A stretch of 17,454 nucleotides of DNA from a virus (Duplodnaviria; Heunggongvirae; Uroviricota; Caudoviricetes): the IMG/VR virus record IMGVR_UViG_2579778773_000004, positions 1 to 17,454 of that record, one strand, 5' to 3'. The notes beneath the pieces are model-generated. The model searched no databases and was not told the origin of the DNA. It was given only the letters and a program-made list of their open reading frames with translations. A program made the translations under genes and the position numbers. Shown piece by piece: positions 1-11,228 of this stretch. The first letter of the stretch is position 1. Each line of letters starts with the position of its first letter.

Positions 1-147
1 GTTATTACCCGATCTCGATGGAAGTTATTGAGTGATCTCCTTTCATGAAAATACGCATTAATAAACAGTTTCTCAATTATTAGTCAGCATCATCAGAAGA
101 AACCCCTCTCCAAAGATAATTTTATAAAATAATATAAATGTCCACGC

Positions 148-200
148 CTGGCACGGAGTAGACTGGCTATCTAAGCTAAAGGTCTGCTGTGAGCGAAAAC
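148..200. repeat. Island repeat copy C: imperfect hairpin element (arms tggcacggagtagac 149-163 / gtctgctgtgagcga 182-196, ending gcgaaaac)
   Basis: By hand alignment it is about 70% identical to copy B (2793-2845). It shares the 5' ctggcacggag and 3' gcgaaaac ends. The arms can pair, including G:U pairs if read as plus-strand RNA. Confidence 0.6.
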
Positions 201-516
201 CGGACATGTACATATCTGTCAAAAAAGCAATTTTTAGCTGCCACTTCCAGTGGATGGCGGTCGGTCAGGAGATAATAGAAACAAAACATAATCATTAAAT
301 GACTGAAAAATGAAAATTGTATAAACATTCATCTTAGATGACAATTTCAAATGCATCTCTATAATTTCCCCTAGTTCAAACCAGACAGAATCTAACCACT
401 GCAAGTAGTTTTAAAATCATAGGAAAATAACGTGCATCAGCAGAAGCATATGGAAAATACACAACACATTTCAAAAATACATACTTTTAAAATTTTCATT
501 GACTGATATTTTTAAT

Positions 517-1152
517 TTATTTTCGTAAAAAAATCGACGCCCTATCCGGGTTTACTTTACATAGATGAGAAAGATATAGCGCCCTTCGATTAAATTTGCC
601 TTCAGTAAGGTCATCAATGTTTTTCCTGAATGGGTACTTAATCCGTGCAGCTATGTCAAAGTCACTAATGCTTGCATGAGCTTTGGTAAGTTTAGCTATC
701 CCATAAGTGCCATAGCCAAAGTAGCAACAGGATATATATGCTATGCAGATATCATCTGCTGTTGTTGCTTTCCTGATAAGAATGGCTAATATTTGCTCTC
801 TTATTTTTCTTCGAACTGTTTTCTCATATCTCTTAGTTATTGTTCTAACAAACTGTTGGTCTATAGTACTTGCGCCTTGATGAATGTTTTTAAATAATCT
901 CAGATATATAGTTCTTAAAATAGCAACTGGATCAACTCCCCTGTGTAATAGTTGCCGATGATCCTCAGCCACTCTTAATATATCAATTAAAGATAAAGAT
1001 ATAGATCTTTCACTTATCGAACTAAGCCTTATATAATCAATACATTTATAATAATCTTCCATAATACTTTTAACCCTGAATTTAAAAACCATTTCTGCCA
1101 ATAGCAAGTATGGCAATGACAGTAAGGTAATCAAAAAGCGCTTCGCTGCCAT
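517..1152 (-). CDS. GT51-family (MtgA-like) peptidoglycan glycosyltransferase homologue with an N-terminal membrane anchor, 211 aa from the ATG at 1152
   Basis: The ORF carries the ordered GT51 motifs AEDHRQLLHRGVD (EDxxxxxHxGxD), GASTIDQQ (GxSTITQQ), RRKIRE (RKxxE), YISCCYFGYGTYGIA and KYPFR. Motif spacing resembles E. coli MtgA as I recall it. The N-terminus has a hydrophobic segment, FLITLLSLPYLLLAEMVF. I moved the start to the ATG at 1150-1152, which has an AGGAG Shine-Dalgarno 8 nt upstream. That start overlaps the end of the upstream ORF by 22 nt. Confidence 0.7.
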   Translation of the reverse strand: MAAKRFLITLLSLPYLLLAEMVFKFRVKSIMEDYYKCIDYIRLSSISERSISLSLIDILRVAEDHRQLLHRGVDPVAILRTIYLRLFKNIHQGASTIDQQFVRTITKRYEKTVRRKIREQILAILIRKATTADDICIAYISCCYFGYGTYGIAKLTKAHASISDFDIAARIKYPFRKNIDDLTEGKFNRRALYLSHLCKVNPDRASIFLRK

Positions 1153-1679
1153 TTCACGTCTCCTGATGTATCTGCAGCGGTGGACCAAAATTTGCCATGC
1201 ATAGCATCTGCATTCACCTTTTGGAAATACAGCAAAATGGTATAACTCCTTAACTCACCTTCCATTTTTATATTCAATGAGGCATGATTTTTCCTTAAGT
1301 AATTTCTCTTAATCACCCCTCGAACCTCTCCAATACTTCTATGCTTACCAGTGTATGGTCTTATATTATTATTGTTTTCAACGTCTTTTGTTTTCTCAAT
1401 AAACCCTTCAATATTATTGTTGTCACATATTAAAGTCAGTGTATAAAACGTTTTTAAATTCAAGTAAGGATTATACGCAGATTTTAGTGTTTTACATTCA
1501 ACTTCAAAGACGCCCGAAAAATTTGGTGGCGGTTTAATATATTCTTTGAATATAAAAATCAATACAGCCGCAATAAGAGTAGCAACAGCACCACTTAAGA
1601 TTTGATTTGTGGAAATAAAGGTTAGAGATGGCTCAAGCCATTCCCAAAATATGTTGAAAAAATCAGTAAATTTATTCAT
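1131..1679 (-). CDS. Hypothetical single-pass membrane protein (182 aa), the upstream partner of the GT51-like gene
   Basis: ATG start at 1677-1679. One clear hydrophobic helix (ILSGAVATLIAAVLIFIF) is followed by a roughly 135-aa Asn/Lys-rich soluble domain. I recognise no motif. The 3' end overlaps the start of the next gene, which suggests translational coupling. The Shine-Dalgarno is weak. Confidence 0.55.
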   Translation of the reverse strand: MNKFTDFFNIFWEWLEPSLTFISTNQILSGAVATLIAAVLIFIFKEYIKPPPNFSGVFEVECKTLKSAYNPYLNLKTFYTLTLICDNNNIEGFIEKTKDVENNNNIRPYTGKHRSIGEVRGVIKRNYLRKNHASLNIKMEGELRSYTILLYFQKVNADAMHGKFWSTAADTSGDVKWQRSAF

Positions 1680-2180
1680 AAATTTCTTTTGATAGTATGT
1701 TTTTTATATGATGTTACATTTTTGAGAAAAAAGCAACTTCGCCGATTAAAAACTATCTCGCTGGAATTTATGGGCATCATGTTATGAATACATTCTTATC
1801 CCATAGGGAATAAAACCCTATCTATAGAATAAAAATCCAAATTTTATCTTAATAAATCAGATAAAAGATACTTATACTACAAAGGTACTTGTGTAAGATC
1901 AAACTTTTAATCCTATAAGTTATAGATTGAAGCAACTGTGACTTATAGTGCGCACACTTAAGAATCTCCGATGACGATGGTAGCAGGAGACAACTTTTGA
2001 CAACTCACTCCTATTACCAACTTACTGACTTGCTCCGCGTTGAGAGATTTATAGTTATGCCAGCACTGTCCGCTTCTGGCACATTGCGGAAGGGCTAACG
2101 GCCCGGAGTAAGTGAGTAACGGATGTTTGCAAGCACTCTTACTGCTGACAATGATCGCATCCAAGATAAAATAGGTGGTG

Positions 2181-2696
2181 TCAAGGTACAGGTTCACCAA
2201 TATAAGTGTGTGTGCAGCAACGACATGTCACCTTAACGTCATCTCTTGTGATTGAAAGGTTTACCTGTTGCAGAATTCCATTCTCATCAACAAACAGACC
2301 TGGGTAAAAACTGCTTTCACCAATGCAGACTAAATCCCTTCGCTGATGCTCATGTAGCGCGACCAACCAGAATACCGGCTCGGTGGTATCAAGACGTCCA
2401 CATACTTCGCTGAATATTTCATTCCACGGCTTGCCAATCTCTTTGATCAGAAAATAAAACAACGGTGTGTAGTCTCGGCCACGCTTCTGTCTGCTATGCA
2501 TTGTCTCGCGCTTTACCAGTAGCTCATCTCCGACTTTTTTGCGATTTCGTTCCCACCGATACTCAGCACCCGGATTATTAGAATGGTGCCGCGTCGTCGT
2601 GTTGACGCTGCGATATAGTTTACGGGACTTATTCTGCTGATGAATACGCATAGCTCGATCTCGTACATCCTTTCTTTTGTGGGCCAGTAGCCCCAT
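2181..2696 (-). CDS. Hypothetical basic protein (171 aa) with an Arg/Lys-rich N-terminal half and a C-terminal CxCC cluster
   Basis: ATG at 2694-2696 with AAGG about 7 nt upstream. The N-terminal roughly 75 aa are rich in R/K/H, and the C-terminus contains VTCRCCTH. I recognise no family. The local GC (about 40-57% on sampled lines) is higher than in the flanking island genes. Confidence 0.5.
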   Translation of the reverse strand: MGLLAHKRKDVRDRAMRIHQQNKSRKLYRSVNTTTRHHSNNPGAEYRWERNRKKVGDELLVKRETMHSRQKRGRDYTPLFYFLIKEIGKPWNEIFSEVCGRLDTTEPVFWLVALHEHQRRDLVCIGESSFYPGLFVDENGILQQVNLSITRDDVKVTCRCCTHTYIGEPVP

Positions 2697-2882: not shown

Positions 2883-3812
2883 TCAGGATTTTATATCCTT
2901 GTGTGGCTCTAATCCTTCAGAAAGGACTTTATCAAATGCAGCATATTGCCTTTGTAATTTACTTTCACATTCATACAGACTCTTTAAACTAACATCATCC
3001 ATAGATTGAAAGAGTCTTTTGTTATCAACTAAATAGGAGTATGCATTAAAAATAGAAACATCCATTATATCTTTCAGTTCTTCATCAGATAGTTTAGTCT
3101 TTTTACTTAAATGCTTAATCACATGTGACTGCAATGCATTTGCGCGAACCATGGCGGGAGGATATTTGCTATTCTTCCCTTCCAATTTACATAGAAAATT
3201 AAAGAAAAAAAATATTGATGTTAAAGATAAACTAACAAGTGTTTTCTCTTCTATTTTTTTCTCCGGGGCCTTTTTTATTGTATTTAAGACGACATCTGCA
3301 ACAAAGTATGCTGAGAATACATCTGCATCATACTCCATTAATGTTTTAATCTGATCTTCACTAAAATCTTCATCGACTACATTGTACCCCATTGAATAAA
3401 CTTGGTAATCACCAATCAGGTTTATTTCTTTACTTTTGGCTAATGATAAGTGTCCACGAGCGACATGTCCAAGTTCATGACCGAAAATATGGTGCCAAAT
3501 AAAGACACACCCTAACGCAACTGGAGCTTCCTTTTCTTTCAAGTCAGGGTATTCTCTCATGAAGAATTCTATATTTTCAGAAAGAATGTCAAACGTTATT
3601 GGTATCAACCCACTCAATAAAATAATATGGAAATTATTGTCTTTTTTTTGTGCGTGAGCATTAAGGTTAAAATCGTCCTTAATGTGCAGAGCTATTTTTT
3701 TACCATCCTCTTCAATAGCGGAGTTTATCTCTATCAATCCTTTTTTGAAGGTATCGTAAACAGGCAAGAAAAAACCACTTTCTATTTTCGAAATTTCATC
3801 ACGGGTCATCAT
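2883..3812 (-). CDS. ImmA/IrrE-type (M78, COG2856-like) zinc metallopeptidase, 309 aa, with an uncharacterised C-terminal domain
   Basis: HELGH is encoded at 3465-3479 within IWHHIFGHELGHVARGH. It is followed about 40 aa later by EYDADVFSAYF, which fits the ExxAxxF(A/S) third-ligand helix of ImmA/IrrE peptidases. The start is ATGATG, with AGGTGG 6 nt upstream. The gene is very AT-rich. Confidence 0.7.
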   Translation of the reverse strand: MMTRDEISKIESGFFLPVYDTFKKGLIEINSAIEEDGKKIALHIKDDFNLNAHAQKKDNNFHIILLSGLIPITFDILSENIEFFMREYPDLKEKEAPVALGCVFIWHHIFGHELGHVARGHLSLAKSKEINLIGDYQVYSMGYNVVDEDFSEDQIKTLMEYDADVFSAYFVADVVLNTIKKAPEKKIEEKTLVSLSLTSIFFFFNFLCKLEGKNSKYPPAMVRANALQSHVIKHLSKKTKLSDEELKDIMDVSIFNAYSYLVDNKRLFQSMDDVSLKSLYECESKLQRQYAAFDKVLSEGLEPHKDIKS

Positions 3813-3898: not shown

Positions 3899-3935
3899 GG
3901 TTACATTTTTATATAGCATGTCTACTGTCCCTTTG

Positions 3936-3977
3936 TGGCACAGAGCGGACTGTCAGATTAGTTTTTACTCTGTGCCA
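3936..3977. repeat. Island repeat copy A: perfect 10-bp inverted repeat tggcacagag (3936-3945) / ctctgtgcca (3968-3977) with a 22-nt loop
   Basis: It lies between the G stop (4012) and the metallopeptidase start (3812). Its left half, tggcacagagcggac, matches copy B tggcacggagcggac at 14 of 15 positions. No U-tract follows on either strand. Confidence 0.65.
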
Positions 3978-4011: not shown

Positions 4012-4590
4012 TTATTGTGGCATTTCAGGCCATTCTATATCCGGAGCATCTTCCGGCTGAACGCGATTCAGTAGCACACGGTATTTTTTCCAGTGTGTCA
4101 GACTTAACTTTTCTTCCTCGGTAGCCATATCTAAATCGACAGCATCCTGCAGCGTGGCAATAATTTCACCTGCATATGCAATCAGCTCTTTCTTCTGAGA
4201 GTCAGCCGCTCTGACAAGCGCATCACGCTCTGCATTCTCATCATTCACCCACGCATTTCCGTTCCATTTCTGATAATCCCCATCCGGGGAAATGGCTGTC
4301 ACGTCTGGAGGTAATGCGCCAAGTTCAGAAATATAAATGGCTGCTCCTGTTTTTGTTTCATAGACAGTCTTTCCACGATGGTCTTCCACCAGATCCCATT
4401 TCATTTCATCTGCATTGAAAACGGCGGCAAAACCCACCGGAATATCTGGAGGTGCAATGTCTGTACTGTTTGCAGGAAGACCTGTATGCGGCGGAATATA
4501 TGCGTCACTTTCGCCAATAAATTCATTGGTTCCATCAAGTAAATTGAAAACGCGGATAGTTTGTGTCTCTGCACTCATTCTGAAAGTCAT
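4012..4590 (-). CDS. G: Tail fibre assembly chaperone (P2 gpG / Tfa family)
   Basis: It sits directly after H with a TAATG stop/start overlap. The sequence has Tfa-like features (N-terminal [22 protein letters not shown]; C-terminal [12 protein letters not shown]-type motif). At 192 aa it is longer than P2 gpG as I recall it, which is consistent with a swapped fibre/chaperone module. An alternative start at M5 is possible. Confidence 0.85.
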
Positions 4591-6365
4591 TATGCCAGCC
4601 TCACAATATAGTTATACGCAACGTTTTTTACGGTGTTCTCTGAATTACCTGTGGCACTTACAGTGACGGTATGACTATGCGCGCCAATCGCAATGGAATG
4701 GCTGTGAGCACCAATGCCAACCGTGTGATTATGCTGACCAATGTCGACTGTATGGGCGTGTGCTCCCGCAGAGCTTGACACCTGGTTGGTTCCTGATACC
4801 TGTACGCGTTGTTTACCCCCGATGGAGTCACCACCGTAACGACCACCGACAGTGTGTGTATGCGCTCCCGTATTGTTTGTCGTTTTTGTGCCGTGGTTAA
4901 ACGTGCTGACCGTTTTTGTCCCGTAATCAAACGAACTGGTTGTTTTCGTCCCTAAATCCGTACTGGATGCACTGGCACTGTGGGTATGTGATTTAATTCC
5001 GTCCTGTTCCTGTGATAATACGGCGCGACCACTGGCGGGTTTGCCCTTGATTGTCCAGCCGCGCATATCTGGAATCACCCCTGACGGATAAGCTACTGCA
5101 AGCAGGGGATAGGCTGCTTTATCAAAAGTCTGCCCCTGCATCAGGGCATAGCCTGTAGGTACTGAATCAGAAGGCCACGGGATTGGAGCACCTACCGGAA
5201 AGTTGTTGTACCCGTCATGATGAATCAACTTCCAGCCTTTAAAAACACCTGCGCAAACTGCCGCAAAACCGATTACATCTCCATTAAAATCAATGCCAAT
5301 AACAGTATTGTATCCCTGAGTATTGCTGTGTGCAGAGTTGATGTAGTGCTTCCAGGTGTGTCCTCCAGGCATTCCATTCTTTGCTGAGGAAGCATTAAAA
5401 AAGCCACCACGCGTACGTAAATCAGTAGCAATATCACTTATATTTTCGGCGTACTCATTTAATCCCGCTCCTTTAGGTACTCGCTTGTTTGCATTGTCAT
5501 TAGCAGCTTTCACTGCTTTCGGAGTCGCGGCAAGCGTTTCAGAATCGCTGTTGGTGGCACTACTTAGCTGGACAAGCCCTTTTCGTGCCGTGGTGGCGTC
5601 CTGTGCGGTGTATTTGCCATTAGCAAGGTCATATGCTGTCTTAACCGCCTTTGGCGTTGCTGCGAGCGTCTCAGATTCGCTGTTGGTGGCACTACTTAGC
5701 TGAACAAGACCTTTTCGCCCCGTGCTGGCGTCCTGAGCGGTATATTTTCCGTTAGCAAGGTCATACGCTGCCTTAACCGCCTTCGGCGTTGCGGCCAGCG
5801 TTTCAGATTCACTATTGGTCGCGCTGCTTAACTGAGTAAAACCTTTTGCAGTCAGTGAGGCGTCCGGATGGCGTCGTGACTGTTCGTGCTCTGCAATTTT
5901 GTCATCAACGTAATCCTGCGTCGCCATCACCGTTGTGGTGTCGATGGTCAGATCCACTGAGGCCACACTGCTGACGATAATGACCATGCGGCAGGTCTGC
6001 GAACGTCCTGAGCCTTCGGCAAGGGCAGGCTTATAACTTTCGGCCATGTTCGCCACGGCAATTAACGCACCGGTATCATCGTACAGACCAAGTTCACGCA
6101 TCCAGAAACCGCCCACCTCCGGCGGGATGACCAGCTCTGCGATAATATAATTACTGTGTCGATTGTCCTGACTGATTTTATTCAGGGCATGTCGCCAGAC
6201 CTCATTAACAAGTTTTGTCTGTCCGGCATCCGGCACCGGCAATTGACCGCCACCGTCCCCGACGGCCATCGTGGTAATGTTGACCTTCCTGCCTCCCGGT
6301 GCAGTCGCCGCTGCCAGCTTTGCTGCACCGGCGGTAGTGATAACGGTTTGGAACTTTACGCTCAT
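4590..6365 (-). CDS. H: Tail fibre protein (P2 gpH-like N-terminus, divergent receptor-binding C-terminus), 591 aa
   Basis: The N-terminal roughly 170 aa ([24 protein letters not shown]...[29 protein letters not shown]) closely match P2 gpH as I recall it. Fibre repeats, a collar-like segment ([28 protein letters not shown]...IPDMRGW) and HxH repeats follow. Confidence 0.95.
5487..5855 (-). repeat. Three tandem 129-nt (43-aa) phage tail-fibre repeats inside H ([39 protein letters not shown]-type)
   Basis: Residues about 171-293 of H contain three consecutive near-identical units. The nucleotide periodicity also shows up as the repeated [15 protein letters not shown] in the antisense ORF 5356..5703. 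Confidence 0.9.
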
Positions 6366-7811: not shown

Positions 7812-8159
7812 TCAACTCACAGGGATGGTTAACGAAAGTTGCTGGCCGGTGTCGTTGTGCTGGCCGTTTAACGTAACTGTCATTCGCCCGTCAAAACTGC
7901 GCTCAGTGGTGACGGATGACAGGGTGACGCGGGGTTCCCATTTCAGCACCGCCATGTAACAGGCGACCTTAATCTGCAACTCAAGCGCCGGGGTCTGCGG
8001 CTGGTCAATCATTGACGCCAGCAACGAGCCGTAATCACGACGCATCACCCGTGAGCCGACCGGTGTGCGCAGGATATCGCCGATACTCTGGCTGATATGC
8101 TCAAGGTCAGTGACAGTCAGGCCATCACTGCAATTCATTCCGAGATAACGCGCTGTCAT
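7812..8159 (-). CDS. W: Baseplate wedge protein gpW (T4 gp25-like)
   Basis: 115 aa with an ATGA overlap with the V stop. The SIGDILRTPVGSRVMRRDYGS motif is typical of the GPW/gp25 family. Confidence 0.93.
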   Translation of the reverse strand: MTARYLGMNCSDGLTVTDLEHISQSIGDILRTPVGSRVMRRDYGSLLASMIDQPQTPALELQIKVACYMAVLKWEPRVTLSSVTTERSFDGRMTVTLNGQHNDTGQQLSLTIPVS

Positions 8160-8791
8160 AGAGGACTCCCGGTTGTGCCGCCGCTGTCGCCGGGGTGTTT
8201 ATGGGTATGCAGCACCTTACCGTTTGATGAGAGTTCACCACCGGTGTGTTCAATGTTGCCGCGCATCGTCCCACCCTTCTGCACTTCCAGCGTGCCGGTA
8301 GTCAGTTTGTTAGTGCAGACCACCTCCGGTGTGTCCAGGGTGACGCGGGTTGATGCTTTCACCATGACCACCGGCACCGTGGCAGTAACAGAATCAGAAG
8401 CCGTCACGCTGGCCGTTTTAATTCCGCTTACCGTGAGTGCACTGGTTTCGGGTTCATACTCAATCACCGCCCCGTCAGGGAAACGGATATGCAGGGCATC
8501 CGCCGACGCAGACGGCGCGGGGTTATCGCCGGAATAAATCCCCGGCAGAACGAACGCCGTGTCGAGTTCACCGCCCACAGCCAGAATCAGCACCTGTTCC
8601 CCCACGGAAGGTGCCCACCATGTGCGCGAACGTCCGGCACGATGGGTCAGCCACTGAAGCCAGTCGGTGCACATGCCGCCGGTCTGCACACGGCAGCGAC
8701 CGGCGTTAAGGTCGGTTTCGACGATAATGCCGGTGCGGATCATGTTGCGCAGTGCGCGCGCGAGTTCCTGAATATTTGCGAGAGTGTTCAT
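8156..8791 (-). CDS. V: Baseplate central spike protein gpV
   Basis: 211 aa, first gene after the S-V intergenic gap, as in the P2 V operon. The C-terminal HTHKHPGDSGGTTGSPL tip motif is typical of P2 gpV. Confidence 0.93.
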   Translation of the reverse strand: MNTLANIQELARALRNMIRTGIIVETDLNAGRCRVQTGGMCTDWLQWLTHRAGRSRTWWAPSVGEQVLILAVGGELDTAFVLPGIYSGDNPAPSASADALHIRFPDGAVIEYEPETSALTVSGIKTASVTASDSVTATVPVVMVKASTRVTLDTPEVVCTNKLTTGTLEVQKGGTMRGNIEHTGGELSSNGKVLHTHKHPGDSGGTTGSPL

Positions 8792-8803
8792 AACGGGAAG
8801 GAT

Positions 8804-8825
8804 GCCGCCGGGTCATACCGGCGGC
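8804..8825 (-). other. GC-rich perfect hairpin (gccgccgg / ccggcggc, 6-nt loop) in the S-V intergenic region
   Basis: An 8-bp perfect inverted repeat lies 33 nt downstream of the S stop and about 12 nt upstream of the V ATG. On the minus strand it is followed by ATCCTTCCCGTT, which is only weakly U-rich. In P2 the O-operon/V-operon boundary lies here. Its role as a terminator, attenuator or leader structure is not resolved. Confidence 0.3.
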
Positions 8826-8857
8826 AATGTGACGATGAGGTGTCAGGAATGGCACAA

Positions 8858-9310
8858 CTAACGGTCGAGGTGAGCCAGAATAATCTCTTCAATCATCTGC
8901 ACATCCTCACCGGTAAAGCCGAGCAGAGGACGCGCCGGATAATCAATTTTCTTACCGTCTTTCCGGGTTTCTTCCGACAGACCGAACTGATGCACGCTGG
9001 CGATTTTCGGTGACTTCCCGCCGTAAAACTCCATTGATGCCTGTTCCGGGCTGGCGTGGATATGCAAAAAACGACTGGTGATAAGTTTCGCAAACATTTT
9101 TCGCTTAACACGACCAGTCTTTTTTCTGGCGCTCTGCTGCTGGCGTGGCGCGTAGGGTGTGCCGTCCGGGGCTTTCTGAGCCATCACCCGACGCTGCTGA
9201 CTCTGCCGCAGACGCTTCGCCAGCTCTGCACTCAGCCGCCGACGCCCTGACGGTGACAGCGACTCAATAAGTCCGGTCAGCCGGTCTTCAAAACGCTTAA
9301 ACTCATTCAT
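8858..9310 (-). CDS. S: Tail completion protein gpS
   Basis: 150 aa with P2 synteny R-S. Its start overlaps the R stop by 8 nt. The sequence MNEFKRFEDRLTGLIESLSPSGRRRLSAELAKRLRQSQQ matches my recollection of P2 gpS. Confidence 0.9.
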   Translation of the reverse strand: MNEFKRFEDRLTGLIESLSPSGRRRLSAELAKRLRQSQQRRVMAQKAPDGTPYAPRQQQSARKKTGRVKRKMFAKLITSRFLHIHASPEQASMEFYGGKSPKIASVHQFGLSEETRKDGKKIDYPARPLLGFTGEDVQMIEEIILAHLDR

Positions 9311-9770
9311 CCCACTTGCTCACCAGTTCGCCATTGATATAAAGCTCCATCGGGCGGGTGACCGGCTCCGGCGGCGTGGGTTCCGGGATATTCTTCACAT
9401 GCAGCGCGCCGTCCACCTCACTGACCAGCGTGCGCTCGGTCAGCATCAGGCTGATGCTGATATCAAAGCTGCTGTCATTGTTGATGTCTGCATAAAACGT
9501 GAAGCCCTTTTTCTGGCCTTCGTCGGTGGTCATGATGTCGGGCTGATTTTCCCGCAGCCACGCCAGCACCGGCACGATGAGCAGGTCAAAATCACCGGTA
9601 AAGTCGGTCACAATGACATTGAGCGTGTAACGCTTTTCGAATGACAACGACGCCGCCAGTGTGGAGGCAATACTCCCGTTATCCACGAATATCCGCAGCA
9701 TATCGGGGTTAGTTTTCAGCACCGTGACGGCATCAGTCAGCGCCCTGCGCAGGCTGTCGGGTTTGAGCAT
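9303..9770 (-). CDS. R: Tail completion protein gpR
   Basis: 155 aa with P2 synteny after the lysis cassette. The sequence MLKPDSLRRALTDAVTVLKTNPDMLRIFVDNGSI matches my recollection of P2 gpR. Confidence 0.9.
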   Translation of the reverse strand: MLKPDSLRRALTDAVTVLKTNPDMLRIFVDNGSIASTLAASLSFEKRYTLNVIVTDFTGDFDLLIVPVLAWLRENQPDIMTTDEGQKKGFTFYADINNDSSFDISISLMLTERTLVSEVDGALHVKNIPEPTPPEPVTRPMELYINGELVSKWDE

Positions 9771-10023
9771 CGTTTTCGTCCTGACAGTGTTTAATCATTT
9801 TTACCTGGCTGGCACAACGTGCCAGCGCGTTCTCGAGCTGCCGGATATCGGCACTTAAATCGCCGTTCGTCTCCGGGTCACTGCCCGGCATCGGGCAAAG
9901 GCTCACTTTCGGGCAGGCGTTGGCGACAATCACTGGCGTCGGTGCAGGCGGGGCGCTGGTGCAACCGGCGCACAGCATCAGGCAGGTCAGCACCGTACCA
10001 GCGGCGAAAATCTTCGTTTTCAT
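9733..10023 (-). CDS. lysC: LysC, an Rz1-like outer-membrane lipoprotein spanin subunit embedded out of frame in lysB and running into R
   Basis: The ATG at 10021-10023 lies inside ORF 9733..10140 and gives 96 aa: MKTKIFAAGTVLTCLMLCAGC..., a signal peptide ending in a lipobox-like LCAGC, then a Pro-rich segment. The architecture is the same as P2 lysB/lysC. Confidence 0.8.
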   Translation of the reverse strand: MKTKIFAAGTVLTCLMLCAGCTSAPPAPTPVIVANACPKVSLCPMPGSDPETNGDLSADIRQLENALARCASQVKMIKHCQDENDAQTRQPAQGAD

Positions 10024-10730: not shown

Positions 10731-11228
10731 TTAAGCCAGTACGCCGCCAGCGGTACGCCAGACGGTGACCAGTTTTTCCAGTGAATGCTCACGCTGACCG
10801 TAACCGGCACCCGGCAGGGACGCCCAGATATTTCGACAGCGTGAAATGGCGCGCTCAATACGTCCCGCCCGGATGTCATCCAGCGCACCGCGTTCGCGGA
10901 TCAACTGAATGGCGAGTCTGTCCTGTGACAGCGGACTGAAATCCGGCAGGGCAAGCTGTTTGCGGTAATGCGGCCAGAACAGGTAAAGCTGCTGATAGCG
11001 ACCGGAGGCCGTGGATTTTTCACCGCGACGGTTAAACACCTTCGCCGGTCGGCCATGTGCGAACGGGTGGTCACTGTAGTCGGTGAAGATTTCCGGCTTC
11101 CCGTCCAGTCCGGTGACTATCACGTCATAGCCACGGTTTTTCGTCAGCGGATGATTCGCCGTCCCTTCGGACACCGCCAGCATGTCGAGAAAGGCGGCGA
11201 TATTCTGGTGCGTGTTAATTACCGGCAT
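10731..11228 (-). CDS. K: Endolysin gpK (lambda R-like lysozyme/transglycosylase fold)
   Basis: 165 aa. The sequence MPVINTHQNIAAFLDMLAVSEGT...GRYQ carries the conserved catalytic-Glu context (SEGT). It has a TAATG overlap with holin Y. Confidence 0.93.
   Translation of the reverse strand: MPVINTHQNIAAFLDMLAVSEGTANHPLTKNRGYDVIVTGLDGKPEIFTDYSDHPFAHGRPAKVFNRRGEKSTASGRYQQLYLFWPHYRKQLALPDFSPLSQDRLAIQLIRERGALDDIRAGRIERAISRCRNIWASLPGAGYGQREHSLEKLVTVWRTAGGVLA

Follow-up and report, generated by a model that had tools for sequence, protein, structure and literature searches.

The stretch of DNA analysed here, hereafter the window, comprises 17,454 nucleotides (nt) of the IMG/VR virus record IMGVR_UViG_2579778773_000004, and this study concerns two overlapping minus-strand genes in it. 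One of them codes for a minimal protein of the GT51 (Transgly) family of peptidoglycan glycosyltransferases, and the other for a membrane protein, to which we refer as the partner. The window is a P2-like prophage that is read on the reverse strand and in which gene G is followed by H, by the baseplate, lysis and head genes and by the gene of the large terminase. Left of G, it contains a foreign stretch of 4 kb with 36% GC, in which both open reading frames (ORFs) are found and which, as read off an annotated E. coli copy, occupies the slot between G and the sheath gene FI. A phage accessory locus had also been named as the site of the pair in an earlier annotation made from the sequence alone (the initial annotation), as had the possession by this phage of its own endolysin K, a GH24 gene (Table 1). 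Both genes had been put at about 30% GC there; the measured values are 34-35%, compared to 56% (0.558) for the phage core.

The GT51 protein consists of an N-terminal hydrophobic helix (amino acids (aa) 7-25, KD19 1.73) followed by a compact and complete GT51 domain (aa ~46-200). The motifs of the family follow one another in order, namely AEDHRQLLHRGVD (aa 62-74), GASTIDQQ (93-100), RRKIRE (114-119), YFGYGTYGIA (144-153) and KYPFR (172-176), and the putative catalytic residues E63, part of the ED of motif 1, and E119, part of the RKxxE of motif 3, are encoded at positions 964-966 and 796-798, respectively. The five motifs in a single ORF, the two retained glutamates with these codons and the N-terminal anchor had all been described in the initial annotation, and we found them as described. 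A longer ORF from an alternative TTG start at 1188 is possible, and the homologues give no support for it. The protein matched Pfam PF00912 with 80.2 bits at a cut-off of 27 (E=1.6e-22), and the NCBIfam models of the penicillin-binding proteins (PBPs) PBP1A and PBP1C as well as those of MtgA and MGT also gave matches. A profile built from 23 family members was compared with the PDB and aligned over its positions 47-200 with the whole GT domain of Aquifex PBP1a (2oqo/3nb6, residues 24-186 of a chain of 200, E~1e-28), and the same profile aligned with S. aureus MGT (3vmq), the N-terminal helix included. The AlphaFold2 (AF2) model of the protein had a pLDDT of 89.8 and a pTM of 0.87, and Foldseek searches with this model returned GT51 structures only (3nb6, 2oqo and 3vmt, probability 1.00). 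The modelled fold is the all-helical, lysozyme-like one of GT51. The identity to solved GT51 domains is only 17-28%. By each sequence and fold criterion tested, the 211-aa protein is a member of GT51, and the profile and structure searches that had been suggested as a check of this assignment confirmed it.

The active-site residues E63, D64, H70, G93, S95, T96, Q99, Q100, R115, K116, E119, K172, P174 and R190 are kept in 87 of 88 relatives, which span many phyla and the two gene architectures described below; the sole exception is a truncated sequence. The loci had been found by means of motif 2 and part of motif 1. These search criteria included neither of the two glutamates, nor the RK pair, K172, P174 or R190, whose conservation therefore constitutes independent evidence. 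Judged by these alignments, the active site is under strict selection and the protein should be catalytically competent; its retention in all relatives but one implies that catalysis or substrate binding matters. Such strict conservation would be more in keeping with an effector or an enzyme than with a protein sensor that evolves fast. We rejected the possibility that the ORF arose by chance or is the remnant of a decayed PBP, since no part of the domain is missing, its conservation is strict and its family is large.

The AF2 model of the partner (pLDDT 84) is composed of an amphipathic helix (aa 2-24), a transmembrane (TM) helix (aa 26-44) and a barrel domain (aa 56-179). Only the second of the two helices predicted at the N-terminus is strongly hydrophobic. 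The barrel has nine predicted beta strands and matches minimal eight-stranded beta-barrels, and the residues G92, E95, K96, R114, G121, R144, G162 and F164 plus a STAAD-SG motif are invariant in the family. Scans of the partner family against Pfam, NCBIfam, PADLOC and PHROGs yielded no meaningful match. The best natural structural match of the barrel is the cyclic-dinucleotide receptor domain of Cap15. Cap15 and the Panoptes protein OptE make up the S-2TMbeta family, in which two TM helices are combined with a barrel that binds nucleotides and controls the disruption of the membrane (PMC12657218), and one member of the partner family carries the UniProt name S-2TMbeta effector-domain protein. 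On the basis of the models, the likeness of the partner to Cap15 and OptE is one of architecture and fold only. Like these proteins, the partner is encoded in a two-gene operon with an enzyme and has a barrel that is predicted to be cytoplasmic. It differs from them in that its family has no sequence relationship detectable by Pfam or PDB profiles, in that one strong TM helix is usual where Cap15 and OptE have two, and in that the enzyme of the operon is a GT51 protein instead of a CD-NTase or mCpol. The initial annotation had described the partner as a single-pass membrane protein of unknown kind; the one strong TM helix is retained from this description, to which two N-terminal helices and a beta-barrel of Cap15/OptE architecture have to be added.

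As read directly from the sequence, the start codon of the GT51 gene is preceded by AGGAG and lies within the 3' end of the partner gene, so that the two genes overlap by 22 nt. This arrangement had been taken as a sign of co-translation in the initial annotation, and the same overlap of exactly 22 nt was found in 32 of 66 paired loci from many phyla, with an overlap of 4 nt in a further 10. The two genes are translationally coupled and, since the 22-nt overlap recurs in loci of many phyla, this coupling is conserved. In order to follow the co-occurrence of the two genes, which had also been proposed as a check, ORFs were called in 85 loci (the 80 best genome loci and five read earlier) and searched with both profiles. 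The partner was either located immediately upstream on the same strand or fused to the GT51 domain in 66 of these loci, again from many phyla. Word-indexed searches had returned only 31 and 21 close clusters, mostly from Enterobacterales. In a profile scan with one genome per species, at least 507 species genomes encoded a small GT51 relative, and these belong to Gamma-, Beta- and Alphaproteobacteria, Desulfobacterota, Acidobacteriota, Binatia, Fibrobacterota, Hydrogenedentota, Campylobacterota and Bacteroidota; an exhaustive profile search for the partner family gave 389 representatives. At least seven fusions were found, all in the order TM-barrel-GT51 (representatives P0123, P0158, P0184 and P0187; loci L059, L075 and L100), and such single polypeptides are classical evidence for a physical and functional link between the partner and the GT51 protein. 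No recurrent third gene was found when we looked for one in the paired loci. The pair is an old, widespread, obligate and self-contained unit.

A second architecture was found in a sister clade with at least 15 loci, mostly from Bacteroidota. Here, the GT51 protein has about 195 aa, is devoid of a hydrophobic helix or signal peptide, and is followed with an overlap of about 15 nt by a conserved protein of about 229 aa. The latter contains the invariant pattern LIGSAKTGFS...SDLDFxII...D, which is the signature of minimal Pol-beta-type nucleotidyltransferases. Hidden Markov models gave negligible support for this assignment, with Pfam Polbeta at E=0.12 in one member and nothing from NCBIfam and PDB profiles, and we call the protein nucleotidyltransferase-like by virtue of its GS...SDLDF motif only. 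A motif of the minimal-nucleotidyltransferase type is also carried by the MNT antitoxins. In a metagenome-assembled genome (MAG) of Herminiimonas (L093), a GT51-like gene (8010-8609, plus strand) is followed by a nucleotidyltransferase-like gene (8610-9338, plus strand) and by a TM-beta-barrel gene on the opposite strand (9335-9862, minus strand), and this locus, which holds all three genes, links the paired to the sister architecture.

Fusions and flanking charges bear on the side of the membrane at which the GT51 domain is located. The stretch that joins the barrel to the GT51 domain is too little hydrophobic to span the membrane in six of the seven fusions (maximal KD19 0.79-1.30), and the barrel and the GT51 domain should therefore be on the same side there. 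The fusions also suggest that the N-terminal helix of the GT51 protein is dispensable once the TM helix of the partner is attached. Throughout the partner family, this TM helix is flanked by acidic residues on its N-terminal side and by a basic [KR]E on its C-terminal side, and a cytoplasmic barrel is therefore predicted, as in Cap15. The fusions without a membrane-spanning linker, the flanking charges of the partner and the leaderless sister clade thus indicate a GT51 domain that faces the cytoplasm, and we infer this orientation from sequence features.

The two genes are part of a cassette of 1.9 kb, which is defined by the only segment of the window in common with an unrelated lambdoid-type viral contig (L016; positions 180-2100, 99.2% identity by blastn). 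A boundary repeat is located at every cassette boundary of the G/FI slot, and the similarity to L016 and L002 begins and ends at these sites. The core of the repeat, CTGGCACGGAGYRGAC, has four matches, compared to 0.48 expected by chance. At the promoter-proximal end, the identity to L016 ends after GTCCGCTTCTGGCAC, and the half-copy of the repeat located there is therefore likely to be a recombination joint. From its sequence and positions, the boundary repeat is probably a recombination joint or terminator that enables cassette swaps. Rfam contains no family for it. A promoter scan performed no better than on shuffled sequence, and no sigma-70-like site was found upstream of the partner gene.

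Only two of 5426 complete E. coli genomes contain the pair, one in the same P2 slot and one in an island with two integrases. The island copy lies beside hipBA, and a gene of an ABC-three-component system is located about 10 kb from the pair. In other phages and elements, the pair is inserted between the antiterminator Q and the holin/endolysin/Rz genes (L019), between tail fibres and integrase (L016, with J/stf, and L017), or beside an integrase (L020); it adjoins RES-Xre and VapBC pairs in L013 and is near a P4-type primase in L007. In the loci L103-L111, it forms an isolated islet between ordinary genes. For five of these, which come from one enterobacterial lineage (L107-L111, 7001-8226), the islet lies between a cluster of a hybrid sensor kinase and an ABC transporter on one side and the genes of a response regulator and a molybdopterin oxidoreductase on the other, with no mobile-element genes within 7 kb of the pair. 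Only in the lineage of L009-L011 is the pair directly preceded by a DUF4145 gene of the same orientation (L009:6565-7362). Decaying copies were also found: a Pseudescherichia MAG (L023, 8001-8632) has a frameshift in the GT51 gene, the partner is truncated in L015 (7508-7939), L047 and L062, and L051 is decaying as well. Such copies fit a dispensable or costly accessory module. Overall, the pair is a mobile cassette that passes between accessory slots of different temperate phages and bare sites of the chromosome, and for the enterobacterial copies the pattern of a phage moron is clear. The initial annotation had spoken of a defence hotspot; this designation is appropriate for the enterobacterial phage copies only, as the neighbours across the 66 loci are mostly housekeeping genes.

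Tentatively, and short of calling it probable, we favour the view that the pair is a conflict module, serving abortive infection, exclusion or addiction, in which the GT51 protein would be the effector and the barrel or the nucleotidyltransferase-like protein the anchor and regulator. In the mechanism that we infer, the two proteins would form a 1:1 complex in the inner membrane, consisting of a competent minimal GT51 enzyme and a membrane-tethered, ligand-binding barrel of Cap15-like architecture. The GT51 protein would be the business end and act on undecaprenyl-pyrophosphate-linked lipid II, most likely from the cytoplasmic side. If lipid II were polymerised or cleaved there without control, the undecaprenyl carrier would be trapped and wall synthesis would come to a halt. 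The barrel would both anchor the enzyme and act as its gate, the trigger being a small ligand in the cytoplasm or a cue from a phage. A prophage would hold the module as a moron, and upon infection by a competing phage the lysogen would sacrifice itself or block its growth. We prefer the GT51 protein as effector because its active site is invariant while the class of the partner is exchangeable, because the barrel and the nucleotidyltransferase-like protein are each reminiscent of a regulator, namely of a ligand receptor and of an MNT-like modifier, because its own anchor degenerates in the fusions, as if the TM helix of the partner only served as a tether, and because a sensor on a membrane tether with an enzyme behind it makes a natural design for an effector. 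Spelled out completely, as a suicide effector at the cytoplasmic face that is gated by a Cap15-like barrel or, in the sister lineage, by a nucleotidyltransferase, and that kills the infected cell by polymerising or cleaving unflipped lipid II, the proposal is rather doubtful.

Several results weigh against this proposal. With regard to topology, the N-terminus of the GT51 protein in the window (MAAKR followed by an 18-residue hydrophobic helix) looks like a classical N-in signal anchor, which would place the domain in the periplasm like that of MtgA, and the charges flanking the helix likewise favour N-in, C-out. Because this N-terminus resembles an exporting anchor, the cytoplasmic-face model needs a re-entrant GT51 helix. 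Basic residues flank the helix on either side, and 62 of 64 sequences have a proline at position 14; this mid-helix proline together with the basic flanks makes a re-entrant anchor on the cytoplasmic leaflet possible. Monotopic phosphoglycosyl transferases are the model for this idea. With regard to the partner, de novo designed barrels and avidins score similarly to Cap15 against its barrel, the eight-stranded barrel being a generic fold, and in the Foldseek search against the PDB only de novo designed barrels were significant, with Cap15 outside the top 50. At the thresholds used, Pfam assigned no family to any of 18 or 70 partner members and gave no link to S-2TMbeta, and the sequence profiles of the partner gave only noise against the PDB and did not reach Cap15 (7n34). 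Because the sequence profiles miss Cap15 and Foldseek ranks designed barrels only, we call the partner Cap15-like without assigning it to S-2TMbeta. With regard to genomic context, the 124 nearest neighbours in the 66 loci fall into 108 Pfam families that are mostly housekeeping, and no enrichment of defence genes among nearest neighbours was seen across these loci; the few defence or mobile neighbours are restriction-modification, NERD-UvrD, PDC-S11 and IS110 genes.

The roles of the two proteins may also be reversed, with the TM-beta-barrel as the membrane-disrupting effector and the GT51 protein as sensor or signal generator according to the logic of CBASS and Panoptes. Either a lipid II-derived product or the state of lipid II would keep the barrel inactive, or the GT51 protein would activate the barrel when a phage perturbs the precursor pool. 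In the systems known for Cap15 and OptE, killing is the task of the TM-barrel protein itself, a point that also counts against the GT51 protein as effector. The S-2TMbeta effector-domain name in UniProt points in the same direction, and an enzyme that stays constant while its partner is swapped between a TM-barrel and a nucleotidyltransferase, each a type known among toxins, is reminiscent of an invariable sensor that is combined with different effectors. Both CBASS and Panoptes pair an enzyme gene with a TM-barrel effector, and OptE is restrained by the product of the enzyme with which it is paired (PMC12657218). However, the cassette is devoid of a nucleotide synthase, the product of a GT51 enzyme is lipid-linked and thus no diffusible messenger, most members of the partner family have one TM helix and not two, and a signal generator fused to its own receptor, as in the seven fusions, would be unusual. 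In the fusions, the partner TM helix looks like a mere anchor in place of the helix of the GT51 protein. We consider such a reversal unlikely. A selfish addiction cassette of the toxin-antitoxin (TA) type, in which one protein is toxic and the other neutralises it and which stabilises any element that carries it but has no dedicated anti-phage role, would account for the two small overlapping genes on an autonomous low-GC cassette, an organisation of the TA type, for the sporadic islets between housekeeping genes and the location beside RES-Xre and VapBC pairs, for the decayed copies in L023, L015, L047 and L062, and for the alternative partner with its motif like that of MNT antitoxins. No known TA family was matched in Pfam or PADLOC, though, and both products are membrane proteins that are stably fused in some lineages, which is atypical for a design with a labile antitoxin. 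Since TA and abortive infection are not mutually exclusive, this possibility overlaps with our preferred one; as a separate explanation we regard it as distinctly improbable.

The initial annotation had named local peptidoglycan remodelling as one option, and the corresponding explanation is a periplasmic, MtgA-like glycosyltransferase that acts with its membrane partner to remodel or reinforce the wall locally and thereby blocks DNA injection or lysis by other phages, i.e. superinfection exclusion without cell death. It would be in line with the complete GT51 domain and its intact active site, with the basic N-terminus and the hydrophobic helix, which aligns with the TM helix of S. aureus MGT and predicts N-in, C-out, and with the prophage accessory slot as the typical place of exclusion genes. 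It is weakened by the six of seven fusions that lack a TM segment between the GT51 domain and a barrel predicted to be cytoplasmic, and by the leaderless sister clade. In addition, there is no transpeptidase or peptidoglycan-binding module, many copies are isolated chromosomal islets in non-phage contexts, and a lone glycan polymerase would yield uncross-linked strands, and we therefore hold this explanation to be very unlikely. Of similarly low probability is a non-conflict accessory function in the envelope, e.g. a glycan polymerase for particular stresses or niches and its regulatory subunit, and the genes would merely hitch-hike on phages in Enterobacterales. The wide distribution in free-living Proteobacteria, Acidobacteriota, Desulfobacterota and Bacteroidota and the housekeeping neighbours with little defence enrichment speak for such a function, whereas its extremely sporadic occurrence within a species (2 of 5426 in E. 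coli), the foreign GC content, the recurrence in moron slots of unrelated temperate phages and in integrase islands and the absence of conserved synteny with cell-wall genes speak against it.

Among known proteins, MtgA and S. aureus MGT are of the same class of about 210-270 aa with an N-terminal hydrophobic helix and a single GT51 domain, and have the five motifs, both glutamates and the fold in common with the protein described here. Their hallmark is STITQQL, whereas the present proteins form a distinct clade with STI[DE]QQ[FL]VR. Unlike MtgA and MGT, which are core genes, this clade is mobile, low in GC and phage-borne, it is obligately paired with or fused to a TM-beta-barrel or paired with a nucleotidyltransferase-like protein, and its leaderless and fused forms imply a domain that faces the cytoplasm. 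CBASS and Panoptes encode a CD-NTase/SMODS protein or mCpol; the cassette has two genes only, of which neither matches such a family, and because no cyclase is present it is neither CBASS nor Panoptes. The nucleotidyltransferase-like gene is confined to the sister architecture. The gpA/gpQ hotspot of P2-type prophages, together with the exclusion morons old and tin, was described by Rousset et al. (PMC9122126). With these morons our cassette has in common that it is a low-GC foreign insertion in a variable slot of a P2-like prophage, and it is also found in moron slots of lambdoid phages and in integrase islands. A further P2 moron that excludes other phages is fun(Z). The differences are that the cassette occupies the G/FI slot and not the gpA/gpQ hotspot (PMC9122126) and that its composition has no described counterpart. 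The proposed outcome is the only point of likeness to the single-gene lysis proteins, since a block of the lipid II/undecaprenyl cycle would likewise lead to lysis of growing cells. These lysis proteins poison the lipid II pathway, as do E of phiX174 on MraY, A2 of Qbeta on MurA and Lys of phage M on MurJ. They are small inhibitors that lytic phages use for their own release, whereas the protein described here would be an enzyme with a fold of the pathway itself, carried by a lysogen and paired with a regulator.

The module is absent from PADLOC 2.0 and from the full-text literature that we searched (GT51/PF00912 in connection with defence, Cap15, DefensePredictor and P2/P4 hotspots), with supplementary tables outside this search, where it may be listed without a name. 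This agrees with the statement of the initial annotation that no defence system of this composition has been described, and we found no counterpart for an enzyme with the fold of a peptidoglycan polymerase as the constant core of a mobile, partner-swapping and phage-borne module. To our knowledge, all GT51 enzymes known so far build the cell wall from the periplasmic side. They are also targets of antibiotics via moenomycin. The family includes a distinct and ancient clade that is mobile, is tied to a receptor-like barrel or a nucleotidyltransferase-like protein, is sometimes leaderless and is a moron of unrelated temperate phages. If the pair is a conflict system, the lipid II/undecaprenyl cycle would join the targets or signals of bacterial immunity, and a membrane receptor of the Cap15/OptE type would be linked to a non-nucleotide enzyme. 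If the GT51 protein is a cytoplasmic suicide effector, it would represent a new class of immune effectors that acts on the cycle of cell-wall precursors, and a cytoplasm-facing domain would be the first GT51 with inverted topology and alter the view of the capabilities of this fold. With 1.2 kb of coding DNA, clear catalytic residues and an E. coli phage as its source, the small module is directly testable.

Table 1 Features of the window and of related loci (aa, amino acids; nt, nucleotides; coordinates refer to the window unless a locus is given).
Feature	Position	Strand	Remarks
Minimal GT51 (Transgly) gene	517..1152	-	211 aa, starts MAAKRF; Pfam, NCBIfam, PDB profile, AF2/Foldseek
Partner gene	1131..1679	-	182 aa
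Gene junction	1131..1164	-	AGGAG 1160-1164, seven-nt spacer, GT51 ATG 1150-1152, partner stop TGA 1131-1133
Mobile cassette	180..2100		~1.9 kb, 34% GC (0.339); both genes with ~420 bp of upstream and ~330 bp of downstream DNA
Boundary repeat, copy	139..205		~65 nt, core CTGGCACGGAGYRGAC at 148-163; distal cassette end; terminator-like hairpin on minus strand, 157..141
Boundary repeat, half-copy	2046..2110		promoter-proximal cassette end; identical to L016 up to ...GTCCGCTTCTGGCAC, then divergent
Boundary repeat, further sites	2785-2849; 3935-3950
G/FI slot gene	2181-2651	-	157 aa, 46% GC
G/FI slot gene	2883-3812	-	309 aa; HELGH metalloprotease-like motif; weak Peptidase_M48 match, E=0.08
Slot gene just beyond the window	L001:10765-11544		260 aa
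Tail-fibre assembly gene G	4012-4590
Tail-fibre gene H	4590-6365
Endolysin gene K	10731-11228		GH24
Sister architecture, examples	L080:7896-9147; L081, L083, L085, L087, L089, L091, L092, L095-L098, L101, L102

Besides the pair, the slot contains three further genes (Table 1), and a block of five slot genes is common to both E. coli genomes that carry the pair, i.e. to one prophage and one integrase island. PADLOC gave no match for the GT51 gene, the partner or the other slot genes. A partial match to the Rfam family IS009 (4049-4200, minus strand) lies inside the 3' part of G and is below threshold (40 bits, gathering cut-off 117, E=5e-7). In the prophage of E. coli CE0011b (L001:15678-18801), an IS2 element is inserted beside G and the tail-fibre gene H is fragmented. 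Unlike in CE0011b, G and H (4012-6365) are both intact in the window, which therefore represents a third and apparently functional copy of the phage.

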